From the IMG/VR virus record IMGVR_UViG_3300014205_000003, positions 1 through 64,000 of that record: 64,000 nucleotides of DNA; one strand, 5' to 3'. Positions within the stretch are counted from its first letter, which is position 1; each line of letters begins with the position of its first letter. Source of the stretch: a virus. Its lineage: Duplodnaviria > Caudoviricetes. The notes below the pieces were generated by a model, which saw only the letters and a program-made list of their open reading frames with translations, made no database searches and was not told the origin of the DNA. Both the position numbers and the translations under genes were made by a program. Shown piece by piece: positions 44,822-55,970 of the stretch.

Positions 44822-44850
44822 TTGACAACTTTGACTTGGTGGTCTATATT
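44822..44850 (+). promoter_or_regulatory. Sigma70-type promoter for tnpB (leaderless transcript likely)
   Basis: TTGACA-N17-TATATT, ATG 7 nt downstream. Confidence 0.7.
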
Positions 44851-45958
44851 AAGATTATGATCAGAACCGTAAATATAGACCTAAATCATCTGACGCAACA
44901 TAAGCGGTCTAGCATTGCTGCGTTACTTACTGCATATAGAAGTGCTGTAAACTTCTACTGCAAAAGCCTATGGAACACTCCAGGGAAACTAGATGCAGTT
45001 ACAGAGAAACGTCTTGTAAACTCTCGTCTGACTGCCCGATATCGTTGCACTGCTCTCAAGACAGCTCTCGCAATTGTTATTACAACCCGCAGAGCTCTGA
45101 AGGTAACTAAGAAGTACGGATCAATTCCAGTTCTTACAGGTATGGTTTCTCTGGATCAGAAGTTCGTTACAGTTGAAAAAGGTAAGCAAAGCTTCGACTA
45201 CGTACTCAAACTCTCCTCGCTGTCTTCTGGAAACCGGATCACAATTCCTTTCAACTCTCACAAGAGACTTCAGTATTGGCTATCGAAGCCAGGAGCGGTC
45301 CTGAAACAAGCTTGTCAGATCTCTGAAGACAGGATGAAACTCTATGTAGAGTTTCCAGACGAAGCTCCTCGCACAACAGGACGTGTCCTAGGTGTAGACG
45401 TCGGAATAAACAAACTGCTGACTACTTCGGACAATGTCTTCTTAGGAACAACTTGGAAAGCTCTGTCTCTGAAGATCAGACGCTGCAAAGTTGGAAGTGC
45501 TGGAAGACAACGAGCATACAGAGAACGTGATCAGTTTATTAATCGTACTGTCAATCTTCTTCCTTGGTCAGAACTTCGAGCAATCGGAATTGAAGACCTC
45601 AAAGGTATGAAGACAGGTAAAAGTAAGAATCGAGGAAAAGCATTTCGTAAAGCACTGGCACCATGGCTGTACCGTCGACTGCTCAACCGCATAGAGGTTA
45701 AAGCAGAGGAGAACCGTGTTCGTCCTCTGCGTGTACCTGCGGCCAATAGTTCACGGGAATGTCCACGTTGTGGAATGGTGTCGAAGCTGAATCGCACAGG
45801 AGAGAACTTTGTTTGTATTCGTTGCGGCCACGCTGCGGATGCCGACTACGTCGGAGCAAGCAATGTTCTCGCTCGTACTATGCAGATCCTAGGGAGCTAG
45901 AGTCCCCTAGTGCCAAAAGCTGGAATTGTTAGCGCAAGTTAACTATTACGGTAACTCT
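44827..45958 (+). mobile_element. Non-autonomous TnpB element (IS200/IS605 superfamily)
   Basis: Starts after TTGAC and ends at ACTCT; removal restores the interrupted reading frame. Confidence 0.7.
44857..45900 (+). CDS. tnpB: TnpB RNA-guided endonuclease
   Basis: GVDVG, IEDL, CPRCG..CIRCG and DAD; RuvC triad intact. Confidence 0.9.
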   Translation: MIRTVNIDLNHLTQHKRSSIAALLTAYRSAVNFYCKSLWNTPGKLDAVTEKRLVNSRLTARYRCTALKTALAIVITTRRALKVTKKYGSIPVLTGMVSLDQKFVTVEKGKQSFDYVLKLSSLSSGNRITIPFNSHKRLQYWLSKPGAVLKQACQISEDRMKLYVEFPDEAPRTTGRVLGVDVGINKLLTTSDNVFLGTTWKALSLKIRRCKVGSAGRQRAYRERDQFINRTVNLLPWSELRAIGIEDLKGMKTGKSKNRGKAFRKALAPWLYRRLLNRIEVKAEENRVRPLRVPAANSSRECPRCGMVSKLNRTGENFVCIRCGHAADADYVGASNVLARTMQILGS

Positions 45959-48572: not shown

Positions 48573-50405
48573 ATGCCTGCTCAAACAGTAGGTCAGTACC
48601 TAATTCAGAATATCCTTCCAGCAGACGTCTACGACGGCTCTCCGCTGGACAAAAAGGGTATTGCTAAAGTCTTCTCCCAGTTGGCTGAAAAGTATCCAGA
48701 CAAGTACGTAGATATTCTGGATGACTACAACCAAGCTGCTGGAGACGCTGTAGCACGTTATGGTGGCGTTGCTTCTATTGGTCTCTCAGACTTAGACATT
48801 CCAGAACCTGTTAAGATTCATCGTGATGCTCTCCGTCTGAAAGTCAAAGCTATTCAGCAGAGTCCTACGCTTACAGGTAAACAGAAGAATGACGCTGTAG
48901 TCAAGTTGATGCTCTCAGAAGCAGACAACATTCGCAAGATGACTACAGAAGAGTCCATGAAAAATGGCTCACACTTCGGTCTTTCAGCTTCCAAAGGCTT
49001 CAGAGGAAATCCGTTGCAGACTACGCAGATGATTTATGGAGATCTTCTCGTAGCCGACCATAAAGATCGGCCAATCCCTGTTGCAGGTCTGCATGGTTAT
49101 GGCGAAGGTGTAACCCCTGCTGAGTACTTCGCAGGCTCGTATGGTGCTCGTAAAGGACAGGTCTCAGTACAGATTGCTACTGCTAAGTCTGGATTCTTAG
49201 GTAAAGAAATATCCTACGCAGCCCAACGTCAAGTAATTACCGGAGACGACTGCGGAGCTAAGAATGTAGGCATAACAGTCAATGGAGATAATCCTGAGAT
49301 CATAGGAAGTGTTCTAGCCAAGACTACAAAAGGTATCCCCGCAGGAACAGTTATTACCAAGAACAATCTTCCAGACCTTGAAGGTACTAAAGTTCGTATC
49401 CGTTCTCTCAGTACTTGTCAGATGCCTAACGGAGTTTGTAAGATGTGCGCAGGCAAGAGAGAACAGGGAAAGTTCCCCGACACAGGGTCTTACGTTGGAA
49501 TCACGTCTGCCAGAAGTTTGTCAGAACCCTTTACGCAATCGGCACTTAGTTACAAGCATACTGGAGGAGTTGCAAAGGGTAAAATTGATCGTGGTCTTCA
49601 AGGCTTTGCAGAGGTTGAGCAGTTCTTCAATGCTCCTGAGAACTTCAAAGGTGTTGCTCTGCAGTCTACCAAGGATGGGATTGTTCAGAACATCATCAAA
49701 GCTCCTCAAGGGGGCTCGTACGTATTCATTGACGGTCAGAAGCACTACGCTGATCCTGACATGACATTGACAGTTAAGAAAGGTGATTCTGTAGAAGCTG
49801 GAGATGTTCTTTCCGATGGAACTCCTCATCCAGGCCTTGTAGCTCACTATAAGGGATTGGGAGCTGGACGCGCTTATTTCATTGATAAGCTTGGCCAGAT
49901 CTTAGAGAAGAATGGTATTCCTGGGCACATGAGACACGTCGATTCTATGGCTAAAGCCTTCTACGACAGAGTACGTATAACTAATCCAGAAGGCTTCATG
50001 GGATACAACCCTGACGACGTTGTTCCCTATACAGAGATCCAAAAGGATTATAGCCCACGGAAAGGTACTATCTCTGTTGCTCCTAAACAAGCTGTCAATC
50101 AATACTTAGAACGTCCTGTTCTGCACTACACCATTGGAACACGTGTTACTCCCAATGTGATCAAAGAGATGAACGAAGAAGGTGTTCCTGCAATTGAAGT
50201 CCATAAAGACCTTCCAGACTTCGAACCTGAAGTCTCAAGGATTATGGATATCCAAGCATCTGATCCAGATTGGCAGACACAGCTTGCGGGCTTCAATCTA
50301 AGGAAGAGTTTGCTGAAGTCTGTTACACACGGCTCCACAAGTACTACAGCTGGTACTTCCTATGTTCCCAAGTTAGTCAATAGTACGGTTCTGCAAAATG
50401 CTTAA
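48573..50405 (+). CDS. RNA polymerase beta' subunit, C-terminal part
   Basis: Bridge helix EYFAGSYGARKG..TAKSGF; Zn site DDCG/RS..TC...GVCKMC; trigger loop SLSEPFTQ..HTGG. Confidence 0.9.
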   Translation: MPAQTVGQYLIQNILPADVYDGSPLDKKGIAKVFSQLAEKYPDKYVDILDDYNQAAGDAVARYGGVASIGLSDLDIPEPVKIHRDALRLKVKAIQQSPTLTGKQKNDAVVKLMLSEADNIRKMTTEESMKNGSHFGLSASKGFRGNPLQTTQMIYGDLLVADHKDRPIPVAGLHGYGEGVTPAEYFAGSYGARKGQVSVQIATAKSGFLGKEISYAAQRQVITGDDCGAKNVGITVNGDNPEIIGSVLAKTTKGIPAGTVITKNNLPDLEGTKVRIRSLSTCQMPNGVCKMCAGKREQGKFPDTGSYVGITSARSLSEPFTQSALSYKHTGGVAKGKIDRGLQGFAEVEQFFNAPENFKGVALQSTKDGIVQNIIKAPQGGSYVFIDGQKHYADPDMTLTVKKGDSVEAGDVLSDGTPHPGLVAHYKGLGAGRAYFIDKLGQILEKNGIPGHMRHVDSMAKAFYDRVRITNPEGFMGYNPDDVVPYTEIQKDYSPRKGTISVAPKQAVNQYLERPVLHYTIGTRVTPNVIKEMNEEGVPAIEVHKDLPDFEPEVSRIMDIQASDPDWQTQLAGFNLRKSLLKSVTHGSTSTTAGTSYVPKLVNSTVLQNA

Positions 50406-51460
50406 CCACTTTTCACGGAAGGGGGACTATAAGCTCCCCTCTGTCGAATATTAATGGCCGCATTGAAGTCTGCGTCCATCGTCATTCCACACGCGGTACA
50501 ACAGAACGACTCTCCCTTACGGGAAAGTTTGTCTACCGCTCCGCACAAGCTGCATGTCTGCGAAGTATAGGCAGGAGGTACTTTCGTATACTTAATGCCT
50601 AATTCTTCGCTGACCATCTGAAGCCGACTCAAAACTTTTGAGTAGCTCCAGCGTTGCAGCTTGTTCATGAACTGTTTGCGAATCTTACCTTTAGACCCCT
50701 TCTTCACATCCTTCAAATCTTCTACTACAAGCTCTCGAACGTTCTGCAAGTCGAGAAGATTAACAGACTGATTGATCTTCTGATCACGTTCTGTAAGAGC
50801 TCGCTTGAAAGCTTTAGATCCTTGCTTCTTCCTAGCAATTTTCTTATACACATCTTCCATACCTACGTCGTAGATTTGCTGATCTGACGAAGCAAGAAGC
50901 TTCTTGTACCCGCAATCAAGACCTAAGGAAGATCCTATAGAAGAGCTAGGAGTAGTCTTCTCGAAGAAGACATCGAGGAACCACTTTCCGTTTACGTTTC
51001 TTAAACAGGAGCCTTTCAGTAGTTTCCAGCCATTCTGACTGAACTTGAGAAAGTGTTTATGTTTACGTGAAGGGATCTTAAGGATGAGCTTGTTCCCAAG
51101 ACAGTATATTTTTATCCAGAAGTCGAAGGAGTTAGTTTCGGCGTAAAAGGTGCAGATATTTTCACTTAAATCAAACGTCTTCTGTTTGATCACCGGCTTG
51201 GAAGCTTTCTTGCCTTTGTTCTTTCGCGTCCTTGTTCTGTTAAGCACGCCAAAAGCCTGAATAAAGAGACAGTGACAAATTCTATGAGAGAGCCATGTTT
51301 GAACAGGTTGTAGCTTGTCAAATTTTCTTGCTGACGGATATTGCCAAAAGTGATCTACGTAGACGTTGAGAACACGTAGAGCTTCATCACTGAACGTATT
51401 AAGCTTCTGGAGCTTTCCAGCATTAGCAAAATTCAATGACATTTGAACTCGACGAATCAC
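50402..51460 (-). CDS. tnpB: TnpB RNA-guided endonuclease
   Basis: GLDCG, VVEDL, TSQTCSLCG..CTACG and DADFNAA. Confidence 0.92.
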   Translation of the reverse strand: MIRRVQMSLNFANAGKLQKLNTFSDEALRVLNVYVDHFWQYPSARKFDKLQPVQTWLSHRICHCLFIQAFGVLNRTRTRKNKGKKASKPVIKQKTFDLSENICTFYAETNSFDFWIKIYCLGNKLILKIPSRKHKHFLKFSQNGWKLLKGSCLRNVNGKWFLDVFFEKTTPSSSIGSSLGLDCGYKKLLASSDQQIYDVGMEDVYKKIARKKQGSKAFKRALTERDQKINQSVNLLDLQNVRELVVEDLKDVKKGSKGKIRKQFMNKLQRWSYSKVLSRLQMVSEELGIKYTKVPPAYTSQTCSLCGAVDKLSRKGESFCCTACGMTMDADFNAAINIRQRGAYSPPSVKSG

Positions 51461-51624
51461 TTAGAGACTTCTCCTATAAGAGCTTCGACAGCCTTTAAAG
51501 AAACCTTACGGCGTTTTGACGGGGTGACGTAACCTTTAAGATGTCCAGAGTCAAACCAGTTACGAACTGTATCAGGATGAACTCCTAGCATCTTAGCTGC
51601 TTTGACGATTGATATGAATTCCAT
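51457..51624 (-). CDS. 55-aa MerR/excisionase-type HTH protein (like the IS607 TnpA N-domain); not in ORF track
   Basis: MEFISIVKAAKMLGVHPDTVRNWFDSGHLKGYVTPSKRRKVSLKAVEALIGEVSK; GTGA overlap with tnpB. Confidence 0.8.
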   Translation of the reverse strand: MEFISIVKAAKMLGVHPDTVRNWFDSGHLKGYVTPSKRRKVSLKAVEALIGEVSK

Positions 51625-51804: not shown

Positions 51805-53967
51805 ATGGCTGACATGACTTTCGAGGCAAAATTTGCTCAGCTCGCTGGGAACCAGTTGTCTGACAAACTGCCGTCGATGCTTCCCTACTTCGTCGGCTTC
51901 CAACTCCTCGACAAAGCAGATGACGAGACGCGTGCCGTAGGCATAAACGTCTTTGTTGTCAACGGCTTGTGGATCTATAATCCTGTCTTCTTCCTCAAGG
52001 GAGACATCAAAGGTCTTCAGGACTTGCTCTTTGTCAAGCAGAAGAACATGTTTGTTCCTGCTATGGATAACTGGATTAGTGCTCTGAAAGATCAGGGACT
52101 TGATTCGCTTACTCCGGGCAAAGCTAAGAAGAACACTGGTCGTGGTGGTTCTAAGAACCCTAAAGAGAAGTCCTTCGCTGCTCATCAGATTCCCTTTGAT
52201 GAAATGCTCTTCTCGTCCAGCTCTTCTCAGGACGGCATGGGCAAGACGGGTTCTGCTGCTAATGATATGGTCACTGAAGAAGACTTCAAGATGATGACCA
52301 AGCTTGCTTCCACTACGTGGGAACTCGGCTTGGATACTCAGTTGTCTGCCATGCCTAAGTACGCTCAGGACATGTTCTTCAACACTCTTACAGCTAATGC
52401 AGATTTTGCTAATGCTGTTCTCAAGTTCTACAGCCCTGACAGCATCAACGGTATGGCTTCTATGATGAAGACTGCTGCGACTGTTGTCAAGAATGAAAGT
52501 ACTTCTCCTGCGGAGGACAAGCTTCTGGTCGTTGACAGTATGTCGCATCCAGATGCCAAGAAGCTTTCTACTGCTGAGAAGAAACTGCTTACTCAGAATG
52601 GAGTCTTTGTACGAGACAATCGCAGCAATCATTCTCTGCTCTTCAAGACTGAAGTCAAGCAGAGCGCGCTGGAGAATCCTACAGCTTCAGGTGTCTACGA
52701 TGTCCTTCAGGCTGATGGAAGCATGAAGCCCTATATCGTGTTTGTAGGCGTTCATGGTCTGCAAGCTGGTAATCGCCCGTGTTGCAAGACTACAGATGGT
52801 AACTCTGGACGCGAAGTAGCACTGATCCCTCTGTCTGACACTACAACGTTTACTACAGAGAATGCGTCTAAGCTCTTTGTACGTCCTGTGAATGACAAAG
52901 AATCCTACAAGAAGGTTACTGGTCGAGTTGGTCGTGTTGCTACTAAGCGCGCTTGGAACACCAACACAGATGGAAGCTATGGCGAGATCTTGATGGTTCA
53001 GCCGTCTACTCAGTCTGTCTATGTGTTTGGTCGCACCGGAAATACTGAACTCCGATTCCACGACACTGAGACTGCTAACAGTGTTGGACGCTCTGATGAC
53101 TCTGGTTGTCTTGAGCCGCAGTTTACTGGTGAAGTCGGTAAGCTCTATGTTCAAGGCGGCGTAGTGGTTATTCCGAAAGACGTCAAGATCTTTACTCAGA
53201 TGAAATATTCTGACAAGCCAAACTTTGGAGATATGAATACGATCAATCGTATGGTCTTCAAAGAAGCTGAGATGCATCCTTTGCAGGTGATCGTCCGTGC
53301 TTCTGGTGTGACTATTCGCAGCGAGAAGATCAACCAGACGATGGACAAGACTGCAGCGATTCGTCACTTGGTTGAGAAGGAAGGCATTACAGGTCAGCAA
53401 GCTTTCATGTCTATCCATCATGACGTTGCTGGTAAGCCGGATGGAAGCGTCAAGTACTTTATCAAGTATGCCTTCGACTACGATGTCAATAACAACCAAG
53501 ACATCAAGCAGAACATCAATCGCAATGAAGAGACTGGTCCTGTTGAGACTATCTCTATGCAAGCTGCTCGTCCAGTAATGCCTGCAGATGCGGTACAGCA
53601 GGCCGTCAAGGCGTCTGAGAATGGGAACCGACAGGTATTCGACGTCACAGTGTTGAACAACCTTGTGCAGTCTGCAGACGTGTCCGAGCTCCGTAAGAGC
53701 TTCATCGTAGATATGATGAAGGGCATGGATAAAACTGGACGTCTTCTTTTTATCTATTACTGGCACAATGATCAGTTCTCAGAGCGCTTCGGCAAGGAAG
53801 ACTTGGCCTCTCTGGAGGATAAGATTCGTCAAGTGTTCCGCAATACTGGCGATCTCATTCTGTACCTCAAGGAGAAGATGCCCCTTGAGACTGGAACTCA
53901 GGAACACATCTTGGGTAATCTGTCCGAGGACATTGGCAGTGCTGAAGAGACTGACAGCAAGAGCTAA
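51805..53967 (+). CDS. Large virion/head-associated protein with many KxA motifs
   Basis: 720 aa; MTKLAS, MMKTAA, FKEAE, MDKTAA, IKYAF; high-expression codon style. Confidence 0.65.
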   Translation: MADMTFEAKFAQLAGNQLSDKLPSMLPYFVGFQLLDKADDETRAVGINVFVVNGLWIYNPVFFLKGDIKGLQDLLFVKQKNMFVPAMDNWISALKDQGLDSLTPGKAKKNTGRGGSKNPKEKSFAAHQIPFDEMLFSSSSSQDGMGKTGSAANDMVTEEDFKMMTKLASTTWELGLDTQLSAMPKYAQDMFFNTLTANADFANAVLKFYSPDSINGMASMMKTAATVVKNESTSPAEDKLLVVDSMSHPDAKKLSTAEKKLLTQNGVFVRDNRSNHSLLFKTEVKQSALENPTASGVYDVLQADGSMKPYIVFVGVHGLQAGNRPCCKTTDGNSGREVALIPLSDTTTFTTENASKLFVRPVNDKESYKKVTGRVGRVATKRAWNTNTDGSYGEILMVQPSTQSVYVFGRTGNTELRFHDTETANSVGRSDDSGCLEPQFTGEVGKLYVQGGVVVIPKDVKIFTQMKYSDKPNFGDMNTINRMVFKEAEMHPLQVIVRASGVTIRSEKINQTMDKTAAIRHLVEKEGITGQQAFMSIHHDVAGKPDGSVKYFIKYAFDYDVNNNQDIKQNINRNEETGPVETISMQAARPVMPADAVQQAVKASENGNRQVFDVTVLNNLVQSADVSELRKSFIVDMMKGMDKTGRLLFIYYWHNDQFSERFGKEDLASLEDKIRQVFRNTGDLILYLKEKMPLETGTQEHILGNLSEDIGSAEETDSKS

Positions 53968-53976
53968 CTGTCAGAC

Positions 53977-55106
53977 AAACTGAAAAACAACGATCTTGTA
54001 TACTGTTATACAAGGGAGTAATTAATGATTCGTAGAGTGCAAATGTCTTTAGAGTCGTCCAATAGAAGCAAACTACAGAAACTGGATACTGTGGAGGTAG
54101 AGGCTTTACGTGTTTTAAACCTTTCGATTGATTACTTATGGCAATATCCGTCTACAAGAAAATTTGATAAACCCCCCGCATTTCAGACGTGGCTCTCTTA
54201 CCGTTTTTGTCAATGTCTTTTTATTCAAGCCTTTAATGTTCTTAAAAAACTGCGAGCACGAAAAAATAAGGCTAAAAAAGTATCAAAACCAATCATCAAG
54301 AATAAAACGTTTGATGTGACTAAAAACATCTGTACGTTTTACAGAGCAGAAAACTCGTTTGATTTTTGGATAAAAGTTTACTGTCTGGGAAATAAAATCA
54401 ATCTCAATATCCCATCAAGAAAACATAAGCAGTTTCTTAAGTATAGTCAGAGTGGCTGGAAACTCTTAAACAGTTCCAGTCTGCGTAAAATAAATGGTAA
54501 ATGGTTCCTAGATGTCTTCTTTGAGAAAGCCCCACCTGCACCCGCTACAGGGACTTCCATAGGTCTTGATTGTGGGTATAAGAAACTCCTAGCGTCTTCA
54601 GATCAGAAAACATACGATGTAGGTATGGAGGTCGTTTATAAAAAGATAGTCAGAAAGAAGCAAGGGTCTAAGGCTTTTAAGAGAGCTCTTATAGAACGTA
54701 ATCAGAAGATCAACCAATCTGTTAAGCTACTAGACTTGAAGAACATTCAAGAACTCGTAGTGGAAGATCTCAAAGACGTTAAGAAGAGTTCTAAAGGAAA
54801 GATCCGTAAACAGTTTATGAACAAGCTGCAACGCTGGAGCTATCCAAAAGTTTTGGACAAACTTCAGATGGTCAGCGAGGAAGTTGGAGTCAAACTCCTT
54901 AAGGTGAGTCCAGCTTACACCTCGCAGACATGCAGCTTGTGCGGAGCGGTAGACAAACTGTCCCGTAAGGGAGAGTCATTCTGTTGTACCGCGTGTGGAA
55001 TGAAGATGGACGCAGACTTTAATGCGGCCAAAAACATTCTGATGAGGGGAGTTTATAGTCCCCCTTCCGTGACAAACCAATTAGAGATTATCTAATGCGT
55101 AACTAT
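53977..55106 (+). mobile_element. Non-autonomous TnpB element
   Basis: Follows CAGAC; left hairpin CTTGTATA..TATACAAG; ends at ACTAT; empty site reads in frame. Confidence 0.65.
54025..55095 (+). CDS. tnpB: TnpB RNA-guided endonuclease (paralog of 50402-51460)
   Basis: GLDCG, VVEDL, Zn finger and DADFNAA. Confidence 0.92.
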   Translation: MIRRVQMSLESSNRSKLQKLDTVEVEALRVLNLSIDYLWQYPSTRKFDKPPAFQTWLSYRFCQCLFIQAFNVLKKLRARKNKAKKVSKPIIKNKTFDVTKNICTFYRAENSFDFWIKVYCLGNKINLNIPSRKHKQFLKYSQSGWKLLNSSSLRKINGKWFLDVFFEKAPPAPATGTSIGLDCGYKKLLASSDQKTYDVGMEVVYKKIVRKKQGSKAFKRALIERNQKINQSVKLLDLKNIQELVVEDLKDVKKSSKGKIRKQFMNKLQRWSYPKVLDKLQMVSEEVGVKLLKVSPAYTSQTCSLCGAVDKLSRKGESFCCTACGMKMDADFNAAKNILMRGVYSPPSVTNQLEII

Positions 55107-55970
55107 TTACCTTCAAACAGCTCTGATGACTTTCACGAGCTCGTCTCAGCTCCTCTCAATCAGCGTCCACCAGCTTGGAGGCTGATTGTCGCTATGGACT
55201 TCCTTGCAGATCTCTCTAAGAATCTGCATCCTCTCTCCGTCGACGAGTATCTCATGCAAGCTGCTAGATACTACAGAGAAACCAAACTCTGCTCTCTAGA
55301 TCCCTCAAGGAGATTCAAAGCTGTTCCAGAAATCAAATGGGCCTTCAAGACTTATGGTCAATCTGGAGCAATGGGAATCCGCTGGACTACAGAAGCCCTA
55401 ATGATTGGCGGAATGGACGACGACAACATTGCTAAACTTACAGGAACCTCTGAAGATATCGTAAAGGCCTACAGGAAGATCTTCTTCGATGTCGATGGTT
55501 TCTTAAGCTCTAAAGATCTGGTCTATGCTTGTGTAATCCCTCAGAGCTTTGGCAACGCTAACTCGTATAACATTTGGGACTTCACCTGGAAGACTATTGC
55601 TCTTGAGTGTGGTGCAGAAGAGTTCTTAAAGATTCGTAGAGCAGACGTAAACATCTCTAAGGATCAAGTAAAGTTACTCAAGCATCAGCAGATGGTCAAA
55701 TCTCTTATATCATCTGGACACTTGCTTTCGGATAACAGATTAGCTTTTACTCAGGAAGCTCAAGGACTTATCGGAGTTGCGCAGAACTACTGGAAGCTCT
55801 CTCAAGCAGACACTCAGGAAATTCCTAAGCACGACGCAGCAGATGCGTTCTTCAATCGCGTAGTTCCGTACATTCAGGTAACTCTGCAGAATGCTGAACT
55901 CTTGACAGAAGCTAATTCCAATGGCAGATATCGAGAGATGGTTCCTGTACAACAACTTCTCAATGCTTGA
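55095..55970 (+). CDS. Conserved-looking helical protein with HTH-like segment
   Basis: NIAKLTGTSEDIVKAYRKIFFDV. Confidence 0.6.
   Translation: MRNYLPSNSSDDFHELVSAPLNQRPPAWRLIVAMDFLADLSKNLHPLSVDEYLMQAARYYRETKLCSLDPSRRFKAVPEIKWAFKTYGQSGAMGIRWTTEALMIGGMDDDNIAKLTGTSEDIVKAYRKIFFDVDGFLSSKDLVYACVIPQSFGNANSYNIWDFTWKTIALECGAEEFLKIRRADVNISKDQVKLLKHQQMVKSLISSGHLLSDNRLAFTQEAQGLIGVAQNYWKLSQADTQEIPKHDAADAFFNRVVPYIQVTLQNAELLTEANSNGRYREMVPVQQLLNA

Follow-up and report, generated by a model that had tools for sequence, protein, structure and literature searches.

A phage TnpB element whose right end probably supplies the start codon of the gene it interrupts

TnpB elements are usually viewed as intergenic passengers or as disruptors. 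Here we analysed one such element, tnpB copy B (54025-55095, + strand), in a 64,000-nucleotide (nt) stretch of viral DNA (Duplodnaviria; Caudoviricetes), hereafter the window, which is the first 64 kb of IMG/VR record IMGVR_UViG_3300014205_000003, a complete genome of 188,069 bp with direct terminal repeats. The element interrupts a conserved phage gene (55095..55970, + strand) within its first codons, and we consider it rather probable that this gene now starts only from an ATG at 55095 within the scaffold of the element's guide RNA (omega-RNA), that it is translated by reinitiation, and that the element, which has no transposase, spreads by homing. The closest described systems are the ISDra2-type IS200/IS605 TnpB elements (PMC8612924; 10.1101/2023.03.14.532601), with which copy B shares a Cas12f-like TNB domain, the RuvC D/E/D residues and a zinc finger, as well as a scaffold that overlaps both the tnpB 3′ end and the right end of the element, a guide-adjacent pseudoknot, and a guide consisting of right-flanking DNA. 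Copy B differs from these elements in that its genome lacks TnpA, in that it has no recognisable left end or promoter, and in that it stands inside the 5′ end of a phage gene whose start codon its scaffold carries.

The free-standing homing endonuclease genes of T4, seg and mob, resemble copy B as nuclease genes that lie between conserved core genes and are absent there in relatives, and they share with it and with non-restorative homing (PMC13565253; PMC11870625) the predicted target, the cognate uninterrupted allele, and spread by recombination during co-infection. Transposon non-restorative homing has been discussed for OMEGA systems in a review (PMC13565253), and a plasmid gene drive has shown non-restorative homing for plasmids (PMC11870625). 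In contrast to seg and mob, recognition by copy B would be RNA-guided, which for phages has been proposed but not demonstrated in the literature we found. IStrons, in which an IS605 or IS607 element is combined with a group I intron (PMC10690162), also place a TnpB element inside a gene without destroying it; whereas IStrons are rescued by RNA splicing, copy B is apparently made harmless by translation, through donation of a start codon and reinitiation. UAAUG-coupled operons of phages and bacteria have the same one-base overlap, the same lack of a Shine-Dalgarno sequence and the same structured upstream RNA that the terminating ribosome would open, but at copy B the cistron that ends there belongs to a selfish nuclease, and translation would restart within a guide-RNA scaffold. 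Our literature search found no description of a TnpB right end that donates a start codon.

The copy B gene is intact and encodes 356 amino acids, ending at TAA 55093-55095. Its product matches Pfam PF07282 (Cas12f1-like_TNB; E value 3.9e-19, 69 bits), aligns to solved Cas12f/TnpB structures in the PDB, and retains the RuvC residues D182, E247 and D329/D331 and a CxxC..CxxC zinc finger (C303/C306/C321/C324); the RuvC D/E/D residues and both CxxC pairs are invariant across 27 family members. A tblastn-type search of the 188-kb genome with this product found eight tnpB genes, including four close paralogues, namely copy B itself, copy A (window 50402-51460, - strand) and copies C and D (genome 142.4 kb and 101.3 kb, both - strand), with A, C and D 73-76% identical to copy B and copies E, F, G and H more distant. 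TnpA was absent from the complete genome in searches for PF01797 (Y1) and PF00239 (serine/Resolvase), which gave matches in control genomes.

The omega-RNA scaffold is predicted to span 54935..55106 on the + strand, its 5′ limit being approximate, and so to overlap the 3′ end of tnpB. At conserved residues, synonymous-site codon identity among the four paralogues stays near 0.48 for most of the gene but reaches 0.71-0.88 in the last ~90 codons, as expected where an omega-RNA overlaps the gene. When read in element orientation, the alignment of the paralogues extends to ...GTA(A)CTAT and breaks off entirely there, which for copy B corresponds to an end at 55106; ...GGTAACTAT is common to copies B, C and D and to L014, an unrelated viral locus, and directly beyond it their sequences differ. 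The terminus TTGGTAACTAT recurs in L014, a 32%-identical element of another virus, and L021, L022 and many IMG/VR loci end in a similar way. Of 11 elements, 10 terminate in five bases that are complementary to a 5-mer in the loop of a conserved GGGAG..CCCC hairpin, and in 9 of these 10 it was the only complementary loop 5-mer found. The two strands covary, with the pairings ACTAT/ATAGT in copy B, ACTCT/AGAGT in copy F, ACTGT/GCAGT in copy E and CGAAA/TTTCG in L012. In copy B the hairpin occupies 55046-55064 (+ strand; loop ATAGT at 55055-55059) and the pseudoknot strand ACTAT occupies 55102-55106 (+ strand), the last bases of the element. Fold prediction places a small hairpin between them on the same strand (TTAGA 55081-55085 with TCTAA 55091-55095), which also covaries among the paralogues (TTAGA/TCTAA in B, CTAG/CTAG in C, ACTA/TAGT in D, GGTT/AACC in A) and is joined to the pseudoknot strand by the + strand linker TGCGTA.

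The shared terminus and the loop pairing thus set the 3′ end of the scaffold, and with it the right end of the element, at 55106, a boundary that we regard as solid, so that the guide begins at 55107. An earlier note on this DNA had placed the element at 53977-55106 and proposed that its right end donates a start codon to the interrupted gene; the right half of that proposal, both boundary and donation, is borne out, while the left half, with its boundary at 53977 and a former CTG start, is not. We also considered whether CGTAACTAT could be native sequence, left by a deletion between two TAATG motifs, and rejected this because GTAACTAT is common to unrelated insertions and pairs with the hairpin loop. 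The predicted guide, or target-matching segment, is TTACCTTCAAACAGCT (55107..55122, + strand), its length of 16 nt being an assumption taken from ISDra2 TnpB. It corresponds to codons 5-10 of the interrupted gene, that is, to the 5′ coding sequence of a conserved gene, which agrees with the earlier note's view that the guide targets element-free alleles of such a gene, and matches to it with up to three mismatches elsewhere in the 188-kb genome included none with an obvious role.

With the right end at 55106, the native start of the interrupted gene has been cut off: gene sequence runs from TTA 55107 onward, and codons 1-4, ATG-CGT-AAC-TAT (55095..55106, + strand; MRNY), are element DNA throughout. 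The tnpB stop (TAA 55093-55095) and the new start (ATG 55095-55097) share one A within TAATG (55093-55097). The small hairpin ends on this same A, and the following TG opens the linker. Copies C and D read TAGTTGG at the position of the copy B ATG and many relatives have ATT there, so one or two substitutions created the ATG while stop, hairpin and pseudoknot were all retained. No AAGGA-type Shine-Dalgarno sequence, of the kind that precedes about 60% of long open reading frames (ORFs) in the 188-kb genome, lies in the 20 nt upstream of ATG 55095. Because the start overlaps the tnpB stop and has no such sequence, translational coupling of the downstream gene to tnpB, as the earlier note had also read it, is the natural reading.

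The interrupted gene, read from this ATG, encodes an all-alpha protein of 291 amino acids. It has 209 homologues at E<=1e-3, and in an alignment of 40 of them W28 and R29 are invariant and P26 is nearly so; all 40 start 12-45 residues upstream of the W28-R29 motif. Between 55098 and M34 (ATG 55194) there is no in-frame ATG, GTG or TTG, and ATG 55095 is the only such codon upstream of W28 and R29. It is thus the only canonical start that keeps the N-terminal motif. An AlphaFold model of the 291-residue protein has a mean predicted local distance difference test score (pLDDT) of 83, with 48 for residues 1-10 and 85-96 for residues 11-30, and the low values at the terminus would fit a tolerance of four foreign N-terminal residues. 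A fold search with the model gave no PDB match. The family as a whole consists of all-alpha proteins of about 280 residues in which W28, R29, D50, E100, D132, W165 and K166 are invariant.

Comparison with element-free relatives shows that copy B is an insertion. Directly upstream of copy B stands a conserved phage gene of 720 codons (51805..53967, + strand; stop TAA 53965-53967), whose product is 42% identical to that of the gene preceding the element-free homologue in L009; there, homologues of the two genes follow each other within 11 nt, without a tnpB. The contig of P0004 carries genes for RNA polymerase (RNAP) beta′ (608 amino acids), a 699-residue protein and the homologue, separated by gaps of 56 and 24 nt, and the gap before the homologue is 19 nt in the P0002 contig and 64 nt in L020, again without tnpB. 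L018 is likewise element-free at its homologue. Given this conserved order of RNAP beta′ gene, ~700-codon gene and homologue, copies A and B are both insertions, and the element is present or absent at a fixed site between conserved genes, as judged against relatives that are distant (<=55% identity). The conserved part of the gene is left intact, in line with the earlier note's view of the insertion as non-disruptive. Neither megablast nor tblastn against phage records found a close relative or an empty site, an exact search for the scaffold motif in viral contigs gave no match, and the related 186-kb virus of the L012 record has no homologue of the 291-codon gene.

The left boundary must fall in the 57-nt spacer between the two coding sequences (53968..54024, + strand). 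Copy B becomes similar to its paralogues only at about the tnpB start codon, or perhaps from the TAA before it; the spacer does not convincingly resemble the left ends of paralogues A, C, D and E, and the 5′ flanks of the elements yielded no shared motif that could be fixed. The spacer contains a perfect 8-bp hairpin, CTTGTATA-CTGT-TATACAAG (53995-54014), which occurs once in the genome, and a heptamer, AAGGGAG (54012-54018), that would serve as Shine-Dalgarno sequence for tnpB. A frame of nine codons, MYTVIQGSN*, runs on the + strand from TTG 53996 to TAA 54023-54025 and may be what is left of the native 5′ end; its stop and the tnpB ATG overlap in a second TAATG (54023-54027). Its QGSN resembles the QKSN or QKS of the three closest homologues, and Q.SN arose in 0.9% of spacer shuffles, a post hoc and weak test. 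L009 has a comparable hairpin, also with a 4-nt loop, whose 3′ arm holds the start codon and a CAA codon, where the window has ATA-CAA. With less certainty than for the right end, we favour a left boundary near 54022/54023, with the native start region probably retained as a leader.

On this evidence, we propose that ribosomes finishing tnpB would melt the scaffold and reinitiate at ATG 55095, yielding a product that consists of MRNY followed by native sequence from Leu5, whose first ~10 residues should, by prediction, be disordered and able to accommodate change. Translation may also, though this is less certain, pass by relay from the remnant to tnpB and on to the gene through the two TAATG junctions. 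Since no transposase is encoded in the genome, homing-like spread is the obvious mode: in the absence of TnpA, the element would propagate only where TnpB cuts element-free alleles carrying the target that begins at 55107 and recombination copies the element in. We infer the cleavage of empty alleles, the biased inheritance and the homing from this arrangement, and homing would fit the non-restorative mode that has been discussed for OMEGA systems and demonstrated for plasmids.

Several observations weigh against this proposal. RNA that has matured to omega-RNA or is bound by TnpB cannot also be mRNA for the downstream gene, so the two uses would compete. Inference of a target-adjacent motif from the left flanks of copies C, D, E and A, from related viral elements and from the gene pair at copy E gave loose T-rich patterns only, and scans of viral and metagenome contigs with the 291-residue protein found no close relative (>55% identity) and no empty site. 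The likeness between leader and homologue N-termini is short and was noticed post hoc, and TTG 53996 has no Shine-Dalgarno sequence and may be there only because the hairpin pairs it with the CAA codon. An in-frame ATG would arise by chance in a 12-nt tail with a probability of about 6%, which is not very improbable, and GGAGG stands 12 nt before M34, the start that the gene caller picked (P0001, 258 amino acids). The last two points also favour an explanation that we think unlikely, in which the downstream gene starts at M34, the right-end ATG is a coincidence and codons 1-33 persist as an untranslated relic. Such a start would remove W28, R29 and P26, and none of the 40 homologues starts downstream of the motif; M34 itself is not conserved, being Leu in P0003, and the GGAGG is accounted for by the conserved Trp-Arg codons. 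The model includes residues 11-33 in the fold at pLDDT 85-96, and the frame upstream of M34 is still open and encodes a sequence about 60% identical to P0002 (residues 14-33). The M34 call therefore looks wrong to us, as does the database call that starts tnpB at M7 (350 amino acids) even though MIRRVQ is conserved across the family; automatic annotation thus seems to mis-start both genes.

The left side of the locus admits other accounts. The earlier note held that the native gene began right after the upstream stop as (M)SDLPSN and that its ATG has decayed to CTG 53968, an explanation that we judge very unlikely. The join it describes is correct, since TAA 53965-53967, CTG TCA GAC 53968-53976 and TTA CCT TCA from 55107 are in frame with ORF 55095, but any boundary is in frame with a chance of one in three. 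AAGAG lies 5-10 nt upstream of the CTG, and the resulting N-terminus would be within one residue of that of P0002 in length. Nothing in the sequence marks 53977, however, and paralogue similarity stops short of it; CTG is not a canonical start, and its descent from an ATG is an unobserved decay. Rather than the expected MSDLP, the element-free homologues begin MNLQKSN (P0002), MQKS from a GTG (L009) and MQKI (L018); none of these three begins MRNY either, the outcome that the earlier note had named as contrary to its view, and an N-terminus that starts with MSD was seen in no homologue. As a left end, the spacer would leave its hairpin and QGSN frame unexplained, and L009 has its comparable hairpin at its own start. 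The spacer is more probably native start-region sequence than part of an element whose excision would leave only a CTG start, and excision is in any case moot without TnpA. It is also improbable, in our view, that the spacer, AAGGGAG and ATG 54025 form a native start region captured by tnpB, with the element running from this ATG, or from just after it, to 55106, or, as a variant, that the native start was a TTG at 55107 that is now TTA. AAGGGAG followed by 6 nt and ATG fits the Shine-Dalgarno style of the phage's own genes, the tnpB starts of L012 and L013 overlap an upstream gene without any left end, and TAATG occurs at both ends of tnpB. Against such capture, GGAG and TAA likewise stand immediately ahead of the GTG start in the paralogues, which means that these bases could come from the element, and the QGSN frame is left unexplained.

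For start donation from the right end, the reading we prefer, we surveyed 31 non-redundant related elements from viral contigs, with right ends set by the pseudoknot. None of the 31 contains a start codon fully inside its right end, and downstream genes on the same strand usually begin 12-100 nt past it. An independent partial parallel is found in L082:2586-2600 (IMGVR_UViG_3300033148_002693), where the right end GGGGGTAACTAT, followed directly by G, holds a Shine-Dalgarno-like GGGGG and the AT of the ATG of an ORF of 477 codons. In L012 the right end closes with an A that also opens the ATG of the following gene, and in L021 the tnpB frame extends 25 nt beyond the right end to stop on the next gene's native ATG. 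Tight coupling to neighbouring genes is thus common in the TnpB family and full start donation is rare.

A wider proposal, which we offer as a tentative and rather doubtful possibility, is that the omega-RNA scaffold doubles as a translation start region, combining addiction by start-codon capture, the two-UAAUG relay, tuning by TnpB, homing and recurrence in L082. If this were true, loss of the element would mean loss of the gene's start, binding or processing of the scaffold by TnpB would tune expression of the 291-codon gene, and the L082 case would make start capture a recurrent evolutionary solution. Start donation of this kind would also be a second route, besides that of IStrons, to silent RNA-guided nuclease elements that are hard to lose, it would tie guide-RNA biogenesis to host-gene expression, and the genome, with eight tnpB and no tnpA genes, would offer a compact phage system for RNA-guided homing without a transposase.

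The virus record encodes pieces of a split multisubunit RNAP, with Rpb1 domain 5 in ORF 48573-50405, and nearly all of its genes lie on the + strand. Searches of Pfam and PHROGs named neither the 720-residue nor the 291-residue protein, and the working label "portal" for the former was dropped because it has no match in either database. An Rfam scan across 44-57 kb gave no family match, so that neither an intron at copy B nor an omega-RNA family was found, and a scan for promoters and terminators gave nothing above shuffles near the copy B element.

The other tnpB copies differ from copy B in their upstream organisation. In copies A, C, D and E, tnpB is preceded by an ORF for a 55-residue HTH_17/MerR-like protein, and copy G is preceded by a helix-turn-helix (HTH) ORF; these ORFs lie at window 51457-51624 (- strand) for copy A and at genome 143.5, 102.4, 147.9 and 185.8 kb for the others. 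The TGA of the HTH ORF overlaps the tnpB GTG in copies A, C and D, and an extended -10 promoter, TGCTATATTAG, stands ahead of the HTH ORF in copies A, C, D and E. The same promoter motif is found in L021, an unrelated contig from another genome, followed by a small ribbon-helix-helix (RHH) gene and tnpB. Copy B, unlike A, C, D and E, has neither the TGCTATATTAG promoter nor the gene for the 55-residue HTH_17 protein. A TGA inside copy C proved to be no more than an earlier natural stop. Copy F (window 44836-45958) is a more distant tnpB, with 30% identity and no HTH gene, that has CTATATTA 6 nt before its ATG and a right end, GGTAACTCT, at 45958.

Copy E (genome 147323-149712) is flanked by an intact gene of 179 codons and by an orphan 3′ fragment that derives from a diverged allele of this gene and begins precisely at the right end (149433); over its first 12 nt, the guide predicted for copy E differs from the intact copy of the gene. 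The right end of copy A (window 50380-50405), read antisense, supplies the RNAP beta′-like gene 48573-50405 with its final codons, (N)STVLQNA, and its stop, and the stops of that gene and of copy A tnpB overlap as TTAA, which makes copy A a second case of a gene end built from element DNA.

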